Shown one piece after another: positions 7,374 to 41,107 of a stretch of 43,367 bases of DNA. The DNA is from a virus (Duplodnaviria; Heunggongvirae; Uroviricota; Caudoviricetes): positions 1-43,367 of the IMG/VR virus record IMGVR_UViG_2579778784_000007, one strand, 5' to 3'. The translations under genes and the position numbers were made by a program. The first letter of the stretch is position 1, and every line of letters begins with the position of its first letter. The notes under the pieces were generated by a model. That model saw nothing but the letters and a program-made list of their open reading frames with translations. It searched no databases and was not told the DNA's origin.

Positions 7374-7681
7374 GCTGCTTCTCCATAAATGTGTCTGCGT
7401 TTGAATATTGCGAAGGCATATTCAGCCTTAACTCTTTCGGTTATTGCATCCCAGAACCATTCAGCGGCTTTTTCCTGATAGTTACAGTCATCATCTTCCA
7501 GCCAGTCGATAGCGTCCTTAGTGTGTTCATCTGGTTTATATGAGCGAAGCATTTCGCTTATTGGGTCGCAACGTTTGCAGAGGCGATCAACTTCACTGTT
7601 AATTCGTTCGTAATCTTCATCAGTAAAACTTGCGATTATTTGCGATATTTCACGCTTATCATTCAGAGTCAGAATCATCAT
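7370..7681 (-). CDS. Hypothetical early-left protein
   Basis: 103-aa ORF, AGGAG SD, ATGA coupling to recT. Confidence 0.5.
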   Translation of the reverse strand: MMILTLNDKREISQIIASFTDEDYERINSEVDRLCKRCDPISEMLRSYKPDEHTKDAIDWLEDDDCNYQEKAAEWFWDAITERVKAEYAFAIFKRRHIYGEAA

Positions 7682-7763
7682 CTTTCTCCTGTTCTTTGTG
7701 CTGATTGAGCATTTTGTTCATCTGACGAATGAATTCTTCGTCTGACCAGTTATCTGTAAAACT

Positions 7764-7916
7764 CATTTCCTGCGATACAACGGAAGGTTGATAGCTGATT
7801 TCATCGCTTTATTTGCTTCAAGCCACATTTTTGAATCACCAATAAATCTGGCTATTACTGCTTTGTTTTGTGCAGCACGAAGCATCTGGTGATTAATGGC
7901 TATTTCATTGCGCATA
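7764..7916 (-). CDS. Small protein in the kil position (Kil-like candidate, 50 aa)
   Basis: Not in ORF track. GGAGG SD then ATG at 7916; MRNEIAINHQMLRAAQNKAVIARFIGDSKMWLEANKAMKSAINLPLYRRK; overlaps the 3' end of the cIII-like ORF as kil overlaps cIII in lambda. Sequence assignment tentative. Confidence 0.3.
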
Positions 7917-8034
7917 ACGCCTCCAGTTGTTTCTTTGCTGCTCTGATTAATTGTTTAACTCGGCGTGATAATTCAGATTCGTGCGGGTAGAAAGCGGACA
8001 TGACGCCGCTACCCGCGAACTGAAAGTGCATCAT
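7900..8034 (-). CDS. cIII: cIII-like protein (FtsH inhibitor candidate, 44 aa)
   Basis: AAGGAG SD 5 nt before ATG at 8034; MMHFQFAGSGVMSAFYPHESELSRRVKQLIRAAKKQLEALCAMK contains an amphipathic-helix motif resembling lambda CIII (ESLLERITRKLRDGWKRLIDIL); position downstream of N matches. Confidence 0.45.
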   Translation of the reverse strand: MMHFQFAGSGVMSAFYPHESELSRRVKQLIRAAKKQLEALCAMK

Positions 8035-8100
8035 GGGTAACTCCTTCTGTTTGATTGCATAACGAAAATGCCTCGAGTGAAGCGTTATTGGTATGCATAT

Positions 8101-8124
8101 AAAAAGGCCCTCACACTGGAGGGC
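8101..8124 (-). terminator. Intrinsic terminator in the pL operon (tL1-like, N-suppressible by analogy)
   Basis: Minus strand GCCCTC-cagtgt-GAGGGC followed by CTTTTTAT; lies between the 156-aa gene and cIII-like ORF. A second 9-bp inverted repeat (GTGTATTCA...TGAATACAC) is at ~8190..8220. Confidence 0.45.
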
Positions 8125-8228
8125 AAAGAAGACTTCCAATAATCAGAACAAGTCGGCTCCTGTTTAGTTACGAGCGACATTGCTCCGTGTATTCACTCGT
8201 TGGAATGAATACACAGTGCTTACTCGTA

Positions 8229-8699
8229 CTAATAAAATACCCAATTTTCTGTTTCTTGGTTGTGCCCAAAGTTATATTCAATATCTGGTGTTGATGTATC
8301 AATATTCTTCATCCCATCAACAAGAGTTGATACAACAGCCAAATCTTGTTTGATTCTCATTAAATGGTATTTCTTCCGGCGCAATAAACTTTCAATGGCA
8401 AGTTTCTTCGTTGGGAATGCAAAAGATCTTTCTGCATTTTTTGCCACTTTCTTAATTGCATATCTATTTCTCTTTTGTTTCCATTCCTGTAACCACTGAT
8501 TTGGTGCTGGTTTAAAATTAACAATCCAATGCGCAGGAACCAACCATGCATAATGCTCTGTCTGATGAAAAGCTATATATTGAAGTGCGAATATTTTGAT
8601 CCCATCTTCTTCAACTGTCGCCTGGAATCTCCAGAAAACAGGCATTCCATCATGTTCAGTTTCTGATTCAGGAAAAGGTACGCTCCATGATTTTGTCAT
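8229..8699 (-). CDS. Hypothetical protein (156 aa), AT-rich accessory gene coupled to N
   Basis: ORF starts 8 nt after the N stop with GAGGTG SD; visibly AT-rich compared with neighbours; no recognisable domain; occupies the ral/sieB region of the lambda map. Confidence 0.6.
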   Translation of the reverse strand: MTKSWSVPFPESETEHDGMPVFWRFQATVEEDGIKIFALQYIAFHQTEHYAWLVPAHWIVNFKPAPNQWLQEWKQKRNRYAIKKVAKNAERSFAFPTKKLAIESLLRRKKYHLMRIKQDLAVVSTLVDGMKNIDTSTPDIEYNFGHNQETENWVFY

Positions 8700-8707
8700 A
8701 TCTCACC

Positions 8708-9034
8708 TCAAATAAGTGGTTTGCTGCCTAATTTCATTTTCTGGCGACCAACACAAGTCACACCCATTTCACTGCGTGGCTTGCTGTACCATGTGCGCTG
8801 ATTCTTGCGCTCAATACGTTGCAGGTTGCTTTCAATCTGTTCGTGGTATTCAGCCAGCACCGTGAGGTCTATCGGATTCAGTGCGCTTTCTACTCGTGAT
8901 TTCGGTTTGCGATTCAGCGAGAGAATAGGGCGGTTAACTGGTTTTGCGCTTACCCCAACCAACAGGGGATTTGCTGCTTTCCATTGAGCCTGTTTCTCTG
9001 CGCGACGTTCGCGGCGGCGTGTTTGTGCATCCAT
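8708..9034 (-). CDS. N: Antitermination protein N
   Basis: MDAQTRRRERRAEKQAQWKAANPLLVGVSAKPVNRPILSLNRKPKSRVESALNPIDLTVLAEYH... matches lambda N including the arginine-rich boxB-binding motif; AGGAG SD. Confidence 0.93.
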   Translation of the reverse strand: MDAQTRRRERRAEKQAQWKAANPLLVGVSAKPVNRPILSLNRKPKSRVESALNPIDLTVLAEYHEQIESNLQRIERKNQRTWYSKPRSEMGVTCVGRQKMKLGSKPLI

Positions 9035-9232
9035 CTGGATTCTCCTGTCAGTTAGCTTTGGTGATTGGATGGCCGGCGCTGAACCCCGGCTTACTGGTTA
9101 GAGCGCCCGCACTACCAGTGACGCTGTCTTGAGGCGCAGATTGGTTACTGCTTGCCATGAGCGCTGTTTATACATTGGTCGAGCATCAGCCTGCTCATTC
9201 ATCCAATCCCAAAGCCTTCTGCTTTGAATGCT

Positions 9233-9263
9233 GCCCTTCTTCAGGGCTAAATTTTTAAGAGCC
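9233..9263 (-). promoter_or_regulatory. nutL: nutL (boxA + boxB) N-utilisation site
   Basis: On minus strand: boxA GCTCTTAAAAA and boxB hairpin AGCCCTGAAGAAGGGCA, as in lambda nutL, between pL and N. Confidence 0.8.
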
Positions 9264-9303
9264 TCACCTTCAATGGTGGTCAGTGCGTCCTGCTGATGGC
9301 TAA

Positions 9304-9332
9304 ATAGTACGATTTGTACTTTATCGAGTCAA
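9304..9332 (-). promoter_or_regulatory. pL promoter with overlapping operator (oL)
   Basis: On minus strand: -35 TTGACT, 17-nt spacer, -10 TACTAT; palindrome AGTAC-N5-GTACT (plus 9306..9320) overlaps spacer and -10; the downstream leader resembles the lambda pL leader (ATCAGCAGGACGCACTGACCACC). Confidence 0.6.
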
Positions 9333-9396
9333 TACAAAATGTTCTAAATATAATTAGTTTTTTATAACGCTTTGTATTTAATGGGTTTATATTTTG

Positions 9397-9425
9397 GAAA
9401 AAGAAAACCCGGCGCTGAGGCCGGG
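9397..9425 (-). terminator. Intrinsic terminator after the cI-operon accessory gene (tIMM-like)
   Basis: Minus strand CCCGGC-ctcagc-GCCGGG perfect 6-bp stem followed by TTTTCTTTTT, 12 nt after the stop of the 348-aa gene. Confidence 0.65.
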
Positions 9426-9436
9426 TTTGGAGTGCA

Positions 9437-10483
9437 TCACTCTGGTTCGCTGGGGAATATATTTATCAATTGCCCTGTTGAAATGTGCCCATTTTCTACA
9501 ACCTCTAGATATGAAATTTCAACAGTTGATTCTTTGGCTACAGCATTCAAAAACTCAAGAAGCTCATCAGTAGATGTTATGTCGGCTGAGGTTTTTATGG
9601 TGAAAGATTCACCATTTGAAACCCTTATGACGTCAATATTTATGTCCTGATTTGTTTCTCCCGAGCGACGAACGCCCGTGACATAAAAGTTATCTCTTCT
9701 AGTTTCCTTTTTTCGATCAATTGATTGTCTTTGGTTTAAGGTATTCAACTGTTCTCTATTTACCACTCTCTGACCAATTGTTACCCTCTCAACTGACGAG
9801 TCTTGAGCAAGCTTTTTAAGCAACTTGCTTTTACCATCCTCGCCGTGAGCCAGAACCTCTCTGCTAATGTTTGTTTGACCGCTAATCAACAACTTGAGCA
9901 CATTGTCTTGTGCTTCGTTTACCGCTTTGGTGCTTTTTTCCACCAATTGCACCTGAGAATCTTGGTCATGTCGCTGTGTTTCGTAGTACTCATTGATCCA
10001 CTTATAGCCTACCGTGCTGGCAGCTAAGACGATAGCGGCGACGGCGCATAGTGCTTGCCTTCCTGTCATTTTGCCTATCGCTTGAGTAAACACTGTCACC
10101 ACTCCGTTTACAATCGGATCTGAGTCACCATCCGCTTGGCTTGAGCCTTCGCTTATTCGGTAGACAATATCCAGCAAACCTTTCTCTGCATCTTTTAGCT
10201 TCTGCCGATTATGAGTGCTGTGACTGACTACCGTAAATGCTTTTTGTATTTCATGCGTAAGCTCTGCCATACCAAAAAGCATTGACGCAGTCAATGAAGA
10301 ATTATATCTATTTGGATCGCCTTTTACATTAATATTGATCTTTGGCCATCCACTGAAAACTACGTTAGGGAATGTGAAGTCGCTTGAGTCGATGTCCTTC
10401 CTTCCGAGCATTTCTGTTACAAAAGATACAAAGTCGTCTTCTGACTTGATAACATATTGCGCAGGTTGATCAATCGCTGACAT
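9437..10483 (-). CDS. Unknown 348-aa protein in the rexA/rexB position downstream of cI (candidate prophage defence/exclusion gene)
   Basis: Starts 25 nt after the cI stop with AAGGA SD, same strand, followed by a strong terminator; central hydrophobic stretch ALCAVAAIVLAASTVGYKWI (about residues 143..162); appears AT-rich; no recognisable motif. Confidence 0.75.
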   Translation of the reverse strand: MSAIDQPAQYVIKSEDDFVSFVTEMLGRKDIDSSDFTFPNVVFSGWPKININVKGDPNRYNSSLTASMLFGMAELTHEIQKAFTVVSHSTHNRQKLKDAEKGLLDIVYRISEGSSQADGDSDPIVNGVVTVFTQAIGKMTGRQALCAVAAIVLAASTVGYKWINEYYETQRHDQDSQVQLVEKSTKAVNEAQDNVLKLLISGQTNISREVLAHGEDGKSKLLKKLAQDSSVERVTIGQRVVNREQLNTLNQRQSIDRKKETRRDNFYVTGVRRSGETNQDINIDVIRVSNGESFTIKTSADITSTDELLEFLNAVAKESTVEISYLEVVENGHISTGQLINIFPSEPE

Positions 10484-10508
10484 TCTTAATCCTTAACATC
10501 CATTCCTA

Positions 10509-11168
10509 TCACCCAAACGTCTCTTCTGGCCACTGGCTGGCGATAACTTTCCCTACAACGGAACAGCTATCATTGCATGGGATCATTGGATATTGCGGGT
10601 TTAGTGGTTGTAGGAACACCTGACCGCTATCCCTGATCAGTTTCTTGAAGGTAAACTCGTCACCACCAAGTCTGGCTATGCAGAAATCACCTGGCTCAAC
10701 AGCCTGCTCAGGGTCAACGAGAATTAACATCCCGTCAGGAAAGCTTGGCTTGGATCCTGTTGGTGCGGTCATGGAATTACCTTCAACTTCAAGCCAGAAC
10801 GCACAATCACTAGCTTTTTTGGTTGTGCTGACCCATCTCTCCGCATCACCTTTGGTAAAGGTTCTAAGCTCAGGCGAGAACATCCCGGCCTGAACATGAG
10901 AAAAAACAGGGTACTCATATTGTTTTTTAACGGGGGCAGATGAGTATTCGCCAACAGGTGAAAATGTACCGTCGTGGTTGAATGAGACGTTATCAATACC
11001 AAGGTATTTAAACACCACACCAATCTCGTCAAGAGATGGATGACGAGATCCGCGCAACCAGTGACCAATTCCACCCTGCGTCATACCAAGCTCTTCAGCT
11101 AACTTCTCTTGAGTTATGCCGAGCTCTTTCATTCTGGATCTAGCCAGTTCATACCATTTCATTTTCAT
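10509..11168 (-). CDS. cI: cI repressor (hybrid: non-lambda N-terminal HTH domain + lambda-like C-terminal S24 autopeptidase/dimerisation domain)
   Basis: C-terminal ~130 aa ([39 protein letters not shown]...[12 protein letters not shown]...FTFKKLIRD...) nearly match lambda CI as I recall it; the N-terminal ~80 aa are a different HTH_XRE domain. ORF-track start at 11210 is TTG; first ATG is 11168, and a better-spaced ATG lies at 11162. Confidence 0.9.
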
Positions 11169-11224
11169 ACCCTTATTATTACGCTCTGTACTAAAACCAT
11201 CCATGCACAAGATGTATTTTTTGT

Positions 11225-33263: not shown

Positions 33264-35386
33264 TGGCCTATAGTCGTGAACAGTTGATGACGGCGTTAAG
33301 GAATGCTGATGCTGCCGGCGATACTGAGGGAGCACGTCGCATTGCTCAGATGCTGTCTTCTGGTGATCAATCCACTCAAAACCAATCGCAGCCAGAAGAA
33401 CAATCTCTGGTGGGAAAAGCTACTGACTGGCTCACTGGTGGTCAAAGTGCAGGGCAAATTGCAGAACAGGCTGGTCGTGGTCTGGTAAACATACCATTTG
33501 ACGTATTGCAGGGTGGCGCAAGTCTGATTAATGCAATCAGTCAGGGGCTTGGTGGCCCCAAGGTTTTGGATGATGTTTATCGCCCTGTCGATCGACCGAC
33601 AGACCCTTACGCGCAAGCCGGTGAAACAATTGGTGGGTATCTCCTGCCAATTGGCACAGCGGCAAAAGCTGCTGGAGCGCCAGCAAAGCTCGCTGAAGAT
33701 ATCGGTTCCGCAGGAAACATGATTGCAGGTTCTCTTGCTGATGCTGCAAATCAGGAGGGCGACTTTGCACAAAATGCTGCCATTAACGGTGGTATCAATA
33801 TTGGTGCTCAGGGGATACTTTCTGGGGCTGGAAGGATCTTAACCTCTAAATCACCTCAAGCTCTTGGTGGCGGGGCAATAAATTCCGCTGCTGATGTTTC
33901 GAAAATGGCAAAGTCTGGTACAGGAAGAGAGATTATTGCCAGACAGTCAGCTAACGTGTCAGACGAAATAGCAAAAGCAGCAGATACTGCTGGAATAGAT
34001 ATCAACGCATTAACTCCTGGCATGAGATCAGGTAGTCGTGGTCTTGCTCAGGCGGAGGGGATTCTGGCGTCAAAGCCCGGAATTACACAGGATGCACATA
34101 CCAAAGCATTCAGTGAAATAGAGTCGAAATTTAACTCAGCATTGGATGAGTTTGGGGCTGAAGCAGGAACTGCATCAGAAAAAAGTGCAGCCATAAAACA
34201 AAGGGTTTTGGCAAGTATTGATAAAATGAAAAATTCAGAAAAGGCCGCATGGGATAGCGTCCGCTCCACGATGCCTGACGCAAAGGCCAGAATGTCAAAT
34301 CTGAACGCTACAATTCAGGGTGATATTTTGGCTGGCATGCCGCTAACTCCTGAGATGAAACAATTCGCATCTGCTTATGCTAAAACTGGTAAAAAAGGAA
34401 TCACGTTTGATGCCATGAAGGCATGGCGAAGTAAACTTGCTGACGCAGAGCAGAAGTATATAAGGTCTGGTGAGGCAAATACGGCAAGGCGCATGGCTGA
34501 GCTTCGTGATGCAGCAACGGAAGATATGCGCATAATGGCTCAAAATGGCGGTTTTCTTGATGACTGGCAAAAAGCTAATGATCTGTCAAAGGCAAGATTT
34601 ACAGCACAAGAACAGGCTGAAGCAGCGTTTGGTAGAGACCTTGCAACTGATCAGTTGGTAACTAATGGCTCTAAGGCGTTACAGGGTTCAGCAAAAAGTG
34701 GAACAGGTCAGTTCCATAAAATAATAAGCGCCCTACCTGAGTCGGAACGCGCGCCAGCAATTGCGTCAATATTACAAGATGCAATGTCGCAAGGGGTACG
34801 CGGAGGTAAGTCTGAAGAGGCTGGAATTAAGCATATCGCGACTATTCTTACCCCACAAAACGTGAAGGCAATTAGTCGATATTCTCCAGAACTTGGCAGG
34901 ATTACAAGTTCATACGGAGAACTTGCACGAGCAGCAACAAAGCCACTTCGATATGTTGAACAGACAGGGCGATCTATGCCAGCCATTAGCACTCTTGAGA
35001 ATGGCCTTCATCCAGTTTTAGAGAGCGTATTGTCTGGCGCTTTTCCAACCGCTGGCGCTATCGCAGGGTTCTCTGGAGGAGGTGTTATTGGAGCAATAGT
35101 GGGTGGCGCTGCAGGTGGAGCAATTGATGCAATAGCAAAAGGATCGATAGCGAAATTATCCGCAACCAGAAGCGGTCGTTACGCTATTGAAAAGGCTGTT
35201 CAAGAGGCAACAAAGGCCGTTAAGGTTGGGGCAAGTGATGGTGCATTAGCGGCGGCTGAACGCAGATTTATGGCAAATAAAGCCGCCGTAAAAGCAATAC
35301 GCGATGCTATTGGTAGCGATGAATTCAATCGCTTGTCGAGAGTTGGTATTGTCGCCTCGTTAAGCGGTATGAATGAATATGAATAG
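33263..35386 (+). CDS. Ejection protein, P22 gp16-like
   Basis: 707 aa, Ala/Gly-rich; TAATG overlap with preceding gene; last gene of the ejection-protein trio. Confidence 0.6.
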
Positions 35387-35388
35387 CT

Positions 35389-35874
35389 TTATCTAATGTT
35401 GCTGCTACTGTTGCATGTGACGGTATTTCCAAATCCTGAATTGCAGTTTGTATAGGTGTCAACACGCGTTGGGTAAGGTTGAGTTATAACAGGCTGTCTC
35501 GCTTTTTGCTCGATCGCTTGCATTGTGTTTACAGCCTGATAATTCAATAAAGCCTGCTGGAATGCTTGGCTTTGTGCTATTTGTTGGGCTTGTTCTTGGC
35601 TTTGTAATTGAACATAAAGATTCTGAAGCTCAAGTCTTGCCTGTGCGTCACTTATCTTGCCTTCATCGACACCTTGCCCGAGCATCTTCGCAGCAAGGAC
35701 ATACAGCTTAGGTGTTGGTGCTGATGCCATGCGTGAGTCGTTCTTCACGCTGGCATCAAGGCAATTAGCCATATCACTAAGCTTTGGATAGCGTTGTTCG
35801 CAACTTGCCTGATAGTCGCTTACTTTTGCGCACCCAGCCAGCAGAAGCGGGATAATTAACAGTGATTTTTTCAT
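35389..35874 (-). CDS. Predicted lipoprotein (candidate superinfection-exclusion factor)
   Basis: 161 aa; signal peptide with lipobox LLAGC; AAGGAGAG SD; encoded antisense to the virion genes in the position of P22 sieA. Confidence 0.7.
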   Translation of the reverse strand: MKKSLLIIPLLLAGCAKVSDYQASCEQRYPKLSDMANCLDASVKNDSRMASAPTPKLYVLAAKMLGQGVDEGKISDAQARLELQNLYVQLQSQEQAQQIAQSQAFQQALLNYQAVNTMQAIEQKARQPVITQPYPTRVDTYTNCNSGFGNTVTCNSSSNIR

Positions 35875-38575: not shown

Positions 38576-41059
38576 ATGTTTATTATGCCAGAACAATTAT
38601 ACAACGTAGTTGTTTCACAACCAAGTCAGTTATTTACTTTAGCTCGCTCGTTTAAAGCAAATGCCAATGGCAAAATTTATATCGGTAAAATTGACACTGA
38701 CCCGGTAAATCCAGAAAACCAGATTCAGGTTTATGTAGAGAACGAAGACGGCTCTCACGTTCCTGTTTCGCAACCAATCATCATTAACGCTGCCGGATAT
38801 CCGGTATATAACGGACAGATTGCCAAATTCGTTACCGTGCAAGGCCATTCTATGGCTGTTTATGATGCGTATGGTGCGCAGCAGTTTTATTTTCCCAATG
38901 TGCTGAAGTATGACCCCGATCAGCTACGGCAGCAATTAGAAGATCCAGATGGCGCTAAAAAATATCCTGAGTTGCAGATAGCACGATGGAGAGATTGTGG
39001 AGATGTTAGAGGTTGGGGAGCAAAAATAGATGGGGTAACAGATGATTCAGATGCTTTTATTAAAGCTTTAAACTCTGGAAGGTCGGTTATAACAATTCCT
39101 GAAGGAATATGCATCATCAAGAAGAATATTAACATTCCTGAAGGGTGTTCACTGGTTGGATCTGGCATTGATTATTGGGATACATATAGACCAGCGCCTG
39201 AAAGATTATTAAAAAGTTGGAGTAAAGGAACCCATCTTGTATTTACTGGTGATGGAGAAAAAAACAAATATTTTTTTAACATCTCTAATGAAAGACCGGT
39301 TAAAATTGTTGAAGGGATATCTTGTAAGTTCACTGAGTTTACGAATGAAGATTCTGTAGGTGTTACTCCTGCTACACCAAAAGCCATGAGCGTAGCTGTT
39401 AGTATCAACAGGGCATCACAGTTACGCAATCTGAGAATAATGGTAAGTAAAAATGGTATTGAAGGATACAATAACCCTGATTCTTATTCATTGGGTGATA
39501 ACTGGGATATAGGGTTGCATGTATACGATAGCTGTGATTCAGTTATTGATAACGTACAGATTGTCGGCTATTGGAGGGTAAAAGGACTACTACTGACAGA
39601 AAATGACGGGAGCCTTTCAATGAAGGGAAATCCTGAAAAAACGCACTTTAATAACGTTTATGTACAGTCAGGAATCGCGATAAGGAATAGCCCTCAGATT
39701 GATCTTGTAAGTAATACTGAAAGCTCAGTGACATTTAAACATAAAAAGTCGATGAGAATAACTTCAGTTAAACAGTTTAAAATTGCTGGCAGTGAATCAG
39801 TATATACGTATTCAGATGCATCATTTGATGGAACTAATATCACACTATCTGGTATTTCTCCTGAAATACAAGGTTCAATAAGTGTAATCAGGTTTCCGTC
39901 AATTGGTAATAATTTTAGTGGGACTGTTTTTGAGAATACAGTAGCCACTACTCTTGATCATACATCAGGTAAGCCATCAGAATACTTTGGCCTTCCTGCA
40001 TCCTTTGCATTAGAGATTGATGGTTTCCCTGTTCGTAATTTAAGGCTTGATAAATTCAAAGCTCAAACTACCTTTGATAAAGGAAATTGCATTTTTGGTG
40101 ATTGCCGTGATGTTAAAATCACATCATCTGAGTTTGAAAATGGAATTATGATTGCGTATAACCTGACCGAGACTCAGGGTTATACAGGAAATCTTAGATT
40201 TTTTGCTTCTGATCTTCAGAGCAGCGTTAACACAAGCGAGTTTAAACCAAGAGACGCATTTGTAGACAATAGACAAATAAAAACGGAGTTTACTGATGGT
40301 TCTTTCATTATAAAGAACTGGAGGCCTACAGATACAAAAATACAATGGTCGTCTGGAGTGGATGCTATTGTTCTTAGAGAGTCACCTGACGAACAATCAA
40401 ACGGAAATATTTACGGGTATCACATTGATGGTAAAAGATGGATTAATGTTAGTGGATATAACAAAGATATAAATATTTCATCAAGAAACTTAAGCGTAAA
40501 AAACCATAGTGATGACTCCGCAGTTATTAATATATTCGGCGACTCTGGAAATATTGCCATTAAAGGTAATTTTTCACCAATTGTTGATAACAGCAAATCT
40601 CTTGGTGCACCATCATTTAGATGGGCTCAGATTTATTCTGCATCTGGGACTATAAGCACATCAGATGAAACACTTAAAACAATATATGACATTACTCAGG
40701 CAGAGCGTGATGCTGCGCTGGAAATAAAGGGAATTATATGCAAGTTCAGGTTTAATGAGTCGATTAATTTTAAAGGATTGGAGTTATCAAGGTATCATTT
40801 TGGAGTTGGCGCTCAAACCGTAGGGGATATTCTTAGAAAGCATGGTTTAAACCCTGAGCAATATGCTTTTTGGTGTTACGATGAATGGCCAGACGTATGG
40901 GATGAAGAGGTGATAACTGAAGAGAGCACAGATCCTGATACAGGTGAGAAAATTTATTCTCAATATAAAACAGGAAATATGATTCTTGTAAAAAAAGCAG
41001 GTGGACGCTACGGAATTCGTTATGACGAATTGGCTATGTTTATATTAATGGCAATGTAG
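38576..41059 (+). CDS. Tailspike: P22 gp9-like N-terminal head-binding domain, divergent central receptor-binding domain, C-terminal intramolecular chaperone (S74-like) domain
   Basis: N-terminus [53 protein letters not shown]...[12 protein letters not shown]...VLKYDPDQ aligns with P22 gp9 residues ~7..120; C-terminal ~130 aa resemble the auto-cleaving chaperone domain of endosialidase/K5 lyase/T5 fibre, with an S-x4-K dyad at SDETLK (Ser codon 40661..40663). Confidence 0.88.
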
Positions 41060-41078
41060 TTGCAATAAATGCAGTATA

Positions 41079-41107
41079 TCCCGCATGAAAACTGCGGGAT
41101 TGTTTTT
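41079..41107 (+). terminator. Intrinsic terminator after the tailspike gene
   Basis: TCCCGCA-tgaaaac-TGCGGGA followed by TTGTTTTTA. Confidence 0.6.

Follow-up and report, generated by a model that had tools for sequence, protein, structure and literature searches.

Between the antiterminator gene N and cIII, the early left (pL) operon of lambdoid phages houses accessory genes, which in lambda include anti-restriction and exclusion functions. Ral, the restriction alleviation protein, is small (66 aa) and soluble and is encoded as an early accessory gene of the pL operon. SieB (superinfection exclusion B, 184 aa in the record used) adjoins the N stop on the opposite strand; it has hydrophobic segments of the membrane type and works in the lysogen, in which pL is repressed. 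P22-type gp17, Ea10 and orf184 are interchangeable single-gene modules of the same interval. T7 Ocr and plasmid ArdA are encoded among the first genes transcribed from an early promoter on entering DNA, and both are strongly acidic DNA mimics. Known anti-defence proteins of the inhibitor type are typically small, have no match to an enzyme family and adopt a novel fold, and genes engaged in an arms race often diversify rapidly. Other early phage proteins, such as Kil, T4 Ndd and T7 Gp2, act in host takeover. The accessory region with ral also holds orf184, which triggers the gop-beta-cII abortive system and has been described as widely distributed (Silas et al., bioRxiv 10.1101/2023.04.06.535777).

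We analyzed a stretch of 43,367 nt, referred to here as the window, from a tailed phage genome (IMG/VR record IMGVR_UViG_2579778784_000007). The source genome belongs to the P22-like (Lederbergvirus-type) class of lambdoid phages and its closest DNA matches are phages Dewey, Huey and vB_EcoP-683R2 (PMC12243541). The features of its early left operon are collected in Table 1. The pL-like promoter sits in the region of segments 9208-9298/9400-9427, which is homologous to the lambda pL/nutL region by BLAST; segment 9208-9298 is 96.7% identical to lambda 35494-35583, a span that includes the annotated NutL at 35518-35534. Over window 8733-9063, the N gene shares 93.7% DNA identity with lambda N. 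The terminator in the table is recorded as a "putative terminator" in the HK97 entry, and its lambda copy lies at L012 1232-1253. Beyond the cIII-like gene, kil-like and recombination genes follow on the minus strand.

Table 1. Features of the early left operon in the window and the basis for each.
Feature	Position	Strand	Basis
pL-like promoter, TTGACT-17-TACTAT; would drive N and ORF156	9304..9332	-	pattern scan
nutL boxB, GCCCTGAAGAAGGGC on transcript	9232..9248	-	inverted repeat and lambda homology
N, lambda-type antiterminator gene, 108 aa	8708..9034	-	ORF list; BLAST to lambda
Shine-Dalgarno GAGGTGA of ORF156, overlapping the N stop codon	8703..8709	-	read from sequence
ORF156, 156 aa, HK97 gp45 / phrog_1636 family	8229..8699	-	ORF list, homologues, AlphaFold2
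Segment without lambda counterpart, replacing lambda 34046-35061	8220..8732		BLAST and lambda annotation
Strong 3' UTR hairpin, 12-14 bp	8185..8216	-	RNA fold; alignment with lambda, HK97 and 933W
Intrinsic terminator, GCCCTC-6-GAGGGC (8107-8124) and T-run	8097..8124	-	pattern scan
cIII-like gene, 44 aa, HK022/HK97 type; next in operon	7900..8035	-	ORF list; HK97 and H-19B annotations

Two observations concern the immunity region on the other side of pL. The cI gene (10509..11210, minus strand) is a hybrid. Over the C-terminal half (10495-10919) it shares 94% identity with lambda/HK97 cI, and its N-terminal DNA-binding part has no lambda match, which implies that a common cleavage/dimerisation domain is paired here with a different immunity specificity. 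Between cI and pL/N, in the position of lambda rexA-rexB, lies a 348-aa ORF (9437..10483, minus strand) followed by a terminator (9405..9428, minus strand) identical to lambda 35799-35826. Its sole match is phrog_6191 (function unknown), and neither Pfam nor PADLOC matched it. The ORF is placed for co-transcription with cI in the lysogen and is a candidate prophage defence gene.

The initial annotation had described ORF156 as an AT-rich gene without a recognisable domain that starts 8 nt past the N stop and is followed by a hairpin, an intrinsic terminator and a cIII-like gene, and this description was borne out. Exactly 8 nt (8700-8707) separate the N stop codon TGA (8708-8710) from the ATG. 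A windowed check gave a GC content of 36.3% (GC3 29%) as compared with 47.0% for the window and 50.2% for N, and only 2.4% of the 471-nt windows are as AT-rich, most of them in one other block at 39.0-41.1 kb. That block (38990-41100, GC down to 34%), the sole other large AT-rich one, is inside an 827-aa late ORF in the tailspike position (38576..41059, plus strand) and is consistent with a horizontally exchanged receptor-binding domain. ORF156 is a real gene under strong selection, because the dN/dS among its Pectobacterium/Brenneria homologues is 0.07-0.09, 22 full-length homologues with 55-99% identity could be aligned, and its AlphaFold2 model is confident.

The expression signals place ORF156 behind N. 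Translational coupling of the two genes, as initially proposed, is suggested by the 8-nt spacing; strict coupling is less certain, since ORF156 has its own strong Shine-Dalgarno sequence and the local RNA around the junction folds no better than shuffled sequence (z = +0.5). The 3' UTR of ORF156, on the other hand, folds with z = -3.9, and an Rfam search of 7600-9600 returned nothing credible. A crude consensus scan of the minus strand over 8700-9300 found no sigma-70-like site besides pL, and in a pattern scan the first terminator-like element past the N stop on this strand was the one downstream of ORF156. ORF156 would then be transcribed from pL on the message of N, ahead of the first intrinsic terminator, in which case its synthesis would begin as soon as infection or induction does, and would not take place while the prophage is repressed.

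The flanks define the position of the gene to the nucleotide. Window 8097-8219 is 96.7% identical by BLAST to lambda 33923-34045, the untranslated ral-ea10 segment. Because this flank and the upstream flank at 8733-9063 both match lambda, ORF156 with its ribosome-binding site precisely replaces ral, orf28 and sieB. The initial annotation had placed the gene in the ral/sieB position, and BLAST together with the lambda annotation puts it exactly over those three genes. The hairpin and the terminator, which had been taken as belonging to ORF156, are base-for-base the lambda DNA downstream of ral when aligned with lambda, HK97 and 933W; they are therefore part of the conserved lambda backbone and not cargo of ORF156. 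The lambda segment with these elements is presumably the tL2 region.

Two junctions near the gene record past recombination. At window 8096/8097, lambda 33522 is joined to 33923 and ea10 (ssb) is removed; window 8058-8096 matches lambda 33483-33522, between ea10 and cIII, by BLAST. In 933W and many prophages ea10 is kept at this point. On the other side, HK97, 933W and H-19B carry a 58-nt spacer between N and the gp45 gene, and this spacer is homologous to the last ~54 nt of the lambda-type N of the window (window 8700..8761; HK97 L001 3701-3762; 933W L003 3439-3500). The spacer is what remains of an exchange of N genes by recombination within the 3' end of N. As a remnant of a lambda-type N it suggests that the 8-nt arrangement of the window is older than that in HK97, 933W and H-19B.

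The sequence of ORF156 has long been catalogued and is not new as a sequence. It matches PHROG phrog_1636 (function unknown) over residues 1-156 of 156 with E = 5.4e-112. ORF156 has the very sequence of an ORF left unannotated in H-19B (100% identity), shares 99.4% identity with 933W ST933Wp19 (NP_049479), with Stx2-86 orf57 and with proteins from BP-4795, Min27 and other phages, and shares 98.7% with HK97 gp45. With such identity over the full length and the same position after N, the proteins of HK97, 933W, Stx2-86 and H-19B are the same protein. The difference lies upstream, where HK97, 933W and H-19B have an N of the H-19B type and the long spacer, in contrast to the 8-nt gap of the window. 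All named records of this HK97 gp45 family are annotated as "hypothetical", as are the PGAP annotations in E. coli, and a search of the available library of papers, including work on restriction alleviation in HK97 or 933W, found no functional study of it.

The gene is common in one species and sparse elsewhere. The identical ORF156 sequence occurs on more than 1000 contigs. The gene is present in 598 of 5426 complete E. coli genomes (11%), with up to 4 copies in a genome and at least 95% DNA identity among copies, and only 7 loci of the family were found among 185,579 species-representative genomes. Salmonella phage NX263 and coliphage Bas81 carry homologues with 55-85% identity, as do prophages of Pectobacterium, Brenneria, Rosenbergiella and Cronobacter.

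To see how the gene is inserted, we compared the breakpoints and neighbours of 80 IMG/VR prophage loci with copies at least 99% identical. In about 43-45 of 81 loci the gene immediately upstream is of the N type, at a distance of 8 or 58 nt: 22-23 loci have an H-19B-type N and the 58-nt spacer, and 21 have an N that ends in ...KPLI, 8 nt away. A dozen other genes occupy this place in the remaining loci. Downstream, too, the neighbours vary: ea10, cIII, a P22-gp17-like gene and genes for a 322-aa coiled-coil protein or a 98-aa protein are among them. On the downstream side, the stop codon itself (8229) marks the end of homology in 14 loci, and in 40 the homology continues past the terminator (8097-8101). 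Upstream, breakpoints fall at 8715, 8727-8731, 8760/8761 or 8788, and are 16-32 nt before the ATG in 20 loci; a right-hand breakpoint at 8715 is seen in 13 of 80 loci and one nearer the ATG (8699-8701) in only 2. The Shine-Dalgarno sequence is kept in nearly all mosaic contexts. The conserved DNA upstream of ORF156 amounts to only 16-90 nt, which is too short and too variable for the module to carry a promoter. When the neighbours from 14 unrelated contexts were compared all against all by BLASTP, no conserved partner gene emerged, and the ORF156 homologues were AT-richer than their flanks in 10 of 10 contexts examined. ORF156 moves as a single-gene module that lacks a terminator and a partner of its own and in which the consensus scan found no promoter.

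These breakpoints bear on whether ORF156 is a classical moron in the sense of Juhala and Hendrix, that is, an autonomous promoter-gene-terminator cassette that confers a fitness trait on the host. The atypical composition and the terminator directly downstream are as expected of a moron. The terminator with its hairpin is backbone DNA, however, homology stops at the stop codon in those 14 loci, and no promoter was found. The classical moron reading is largely refuted and we give it very little credence.

The same loci show which genes share the slot. The lambda-type sieB is absent from 81 of 81 loci and ral is present in one, L052 (5077-5277, plus strand), in which the order is N-ral-207aa-ORF156 homologue-cIII. 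Since ral and the homologue stand in one operon there, they are not simple alternatives. Ea10 co-occurs with ORF156 in 27 of 81 loci and gp17 in 9 of 81; with such frequent company these two are neighbours and not alternatives. A 107-aa ORF (L031 3003-3326, plus strand) whose N-terminus equals that of orf184 lies 63 nt upstream of another homologue. Together, L031 and L052 indicate that the slot can hold several accessory genes in series.

We next asked whether ORF156 is related to any of the known occupants. An hhalign comparison of its profile with Ral, SieB, P22-type gp17 and Ea10 gave probabilities of 0.1-1.4%. ORF156 resembles Ral in its place between N and cIII and in being a small, soluble early accessory product, and both are basic (pI 8.8 against 9.05). 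In contrast to this likeness, ORF156 is 2.4 times longer than Ral and the hhalign probability is 0.13% with 5 aligned columns. Gp17, Ea10 and orf184 directly adjoin ORF156 in various prophages and behave as modules of the same kind, whereas gp17 and Ea10 are unrelated to it in sequence. Identity of ORF156 with the orf184 of Silas et al. was considered and rejected; the AlphaFold file of orf184 starts MEALVVERSEDGYWT. The ORF156 sequence was not found in supplementary text of the Silas et al. preprint or of its published successor.

The comparison with SieB is the one that the initial annotation had raised when it suggested an exclusion role. ORF156 takes the place next to the N stop that SieB has in lambda. 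A SieB- or Rex-like exclusion or defence gene, expressed in the prophage to shield the lysogen from other phages, would suit a slot that holds sieB in lambda and a gene that is AT-rich, horizontally mobile and very common in prophages. ORF156 differs from SieB, however, in being co-directional with N and in having no hydrophobic segment: its maximum Kyte-Doolittle value (window 19) is 0.56, with none above 1.6, as compared with 1.73 for lambda SieB, and the hhalign probability for the pair is 0.44%. The exclusion reading is also at odds with the lack of a PADLOC match and with the repression of pL in lysogens. Because no promoter-like site was found upstream of the gene, within its short conserved stretch, and relatives occur in virulent phages, SieB-like exclusion in the lysogen is improbable. 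The SieB-like and moron readings are those most clearly weakened by the data. The positional part of the initial annotation is correct and can now be stated exactly; by sequence comparison ORF156 seems to belong to neither the Ral nor the SieB family.

The virulent relatives came from a wider superfamily. A profile search of 1.8 billion representative proteins gave 87 matches. Apart from artefacts and fragments of the core family, these are proteins of 125-170 residues aligned over about positions 20-140; P0059 and P0080 were rejected as members because they are low-complexity repeat artefacts. Searches with tblastn and Foldseek found relatives in Vibrio, Pseudomonas, Pantoea, Sinorhizobium and Rhodobacter phages, in N4-like Delftia and Achromobacter phages, in the Ackermannviridae phage phiEa2809 and in Cellulophaga and Tenacibaculum phages, of which the N4-like and Ackermannviridae phages are virulent. 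All are uncharacterised and located in early or accessory gene clusters. The superfamily is phage-restricted and has no solved structural relative.

The gene contexts of the relatives were read where possible, the metagenomic contigs of the distant ones being mostly too short. In Vibrio phage PvVp04 the relative follows a Cro-like HTH gene and precedes a Rha-like gene, and those of NX263 and Bas81 open an operon and are followed by a ParB-like gene. The prophages of Pectobacterium and Brenneria have it as the final gene ahead of xis-int. Three non-lambdoid contexts (Medea1, Nafs113 and a Pectobacterium prophage) have DNA methyltransferase genes within a few kb. As a separate observation, an unannotated 262-aa ORF in Medea1 (L009 4426-5214, plus strand) begins at the stop codon of the family member. 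Relatives of this ORF occur 3 kb upstream of the ORF156 homologue in Pectobacterium/Brenneria prophages (L006 1376-1981, L098 2575-3237); it has no Pfam match and is the only neighbour seen in three contexts.

Neither domain searches nor structure searches connected ORF156 to a characterised protein. Pfam, NCBIfam and PADLOC returned no domain for ORF156, and Pfam searches of 70 superfamily members at E <= 0.01 and at E <= 5 found no recurring family. The best PADLOC hit, Cas1_II (E = 0.0097, 13 bits, a 46-residue stretch), is at chance level. Sequence and profile searches of the PDB gave nothing below E = 0.1. AlphaFold2 performed only moderately with 22 close homologues as input (pLDDT 72). 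With 70 diverse members, the pLDDT rose to 94.9 with a pTM of 0.81, and the result is a confident predicted model of an unmatched fold for the HK97 gp45 family: a structure search of the PDB found no solved neighbour, and the matches in BFVD are uncharacterised phage proteins only. The model has long beta strands at 19-30, 33-46 and 50-55, two short helices, a fourth strand at 83-86 and a 33-residue helix at 98-130, followed by an ordered C-terminal tail that ends in the conserved NFGHNxETExWxF motif. G33, T47, K87 and A101 are near-invariant.

Twelve alignment columns are at least 60% Lys/Arg (24, 75, 76, 79, 83, 84, 87, 92, 98, 108, 109 and 117 in window numbering), the pI is above 8 in 91% of the members with a median of 8.9, and in ORF156 region 61-130 has a pI of 10.7. 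ORF156 is a soluble, basic, single-domain protein. A conserved basic surface would point to a ligand that is a nucleic acid or an acidic protein that handles nucleic acids. One reading of this charge is that ORF156 is a sequence- or structure-specific nucleic-acid-binding protein for the programme of the phage itself, either a regulator or an accessory of replication or recombination. The conserved Lys/Arg columns with the high pI of region 61-130 suit such a protein, as do the small HTH regulators, ParB-like and Rha-like genes that adjoin the gene in several phages and a 19-residue local resemblance to an AP2-type strand-helix motif. An AP2/Int-arm DNA-binding domain as such was tried and rejected; the resemblance of residues 82-101 to the strand-helix core is not significant and hhalign was negative. 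We regard a binder for the phage's own programme as rather unlikely. A host-takeover factor, which would bind host nucleic acid or RNA polymerase, the nucleoid or the replication/repair machinery and redirect or shut off the host instead of disarming immunity, as the analogues named at the outset do, is a little easier to credit and still unlikely.

The reading that we favour, tentatively and at less than even confidence, is that ORF156 is a stand-alone, host-directed early accessory protein, probably serving in counter-defence and not as a DNA mimic. An anti-restriction or other counter-defence role, as first suggested for this gene, is plausible. ORF156 would act alone, on a target supplied by the host and not by the phage, as an inhibitor or decoy for a component of host or resident-prophage immunity that handles nucleic acid, and it would do so via its conserved basic surface with no DNA mimicry. 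A lone module that occurs in unrelated backbones of temperate and virulent phages suggests a target that is host-supplied or generic.

Several lines of evidence are in keeping with counter-defence. ORF156 occupies the exact ral-orf28-sieB slot, and the slot of its relatives holds ea10, gp17-like genes and an orf184 homologue. It is a gene-sized mosaic module with diverse neighbours. Its position after N is that of an early lytic-cycle gene, the contexts in PvVp04, NX263 and Bas81 are of the early type, and virulent phages carry relatives. The gene is AT-rich and has the patchy distribution of an accessory gene. The nearby methyltransferase genes are a weak association. The protein is small, matches no enzyme family and is confidently predicted to have a fold without a solved neighbour, and it is Lys/Arg-rich throughout the family. 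Like Ocr and ArdA, ORF156 would be among the first proteins made from an early promoter on entering DNA; unlike these acidic proteins its family is basic, and the PDB search gave no structural match to them.

Other findings weigh against counter-defence. Searches of Pfam, PHROG, PADLOC, NCBIfam and PDB and the hhalign comparisons gave no similarity to any characterised anti-defence protein, and ORF156 was not found in supplementary text of the two accessory-gene screens mentioned above. In Pectobacterium and Brenneria, the gene is the last before xis-int and not the first after an early promoter. The near-identity of the E. coli copies is unlike the behaviour of fast-diversifying arms-race genes, and a basic charge fits a regulatory or DNA-metabolism role equally well. 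We reserve the remaining probability for functions outside the readings weighed here.

Counter-defence could take a further form, which we consider doubtful but worth stating. The gp45 family may be the founder of a structurally unprecedented class of counter-defence proteins that blocks a widespread nucleic-acid-sensing or -cutting immunity without DNA mimicry. Such a protein would work through a basic small-barrel-plus-long-helix domain, and its spread would run from lambdoid and Stx phages, in every major lineage of the latter, to N4-like phages, Ackermannviridae and marine Bacteroidota phages.

New here are the exact replacement of ral and sieB, the finding that the gene behaves as a module on its own, the extent of the superfamily and the confident model of an unmatched fold. 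The ORF156 gene is among the commonest uncharacterised prophage genes of E. coli, and its carriers include 933W, H-19B, BP-4795, Min27, many other Stx1 and Stx2 phages and HK97. Tests would be inexpensive, since the gene is present in HK97, lambda hybrids and the BASEL phages Huey, Dewey and Bas106. For the Stx phages, which matter medically, ORF156 is a clearly defined candidate that is easy to test and well suited to screening, and it is no surprise. Should it disarm a host or prophage immunity system, it would help to account for the passage of Stx phages from strain to strain, and the anti-defence repertoire would gain a new fold. As a host-takeover factor, it would instead give this model phage group a new early effector.
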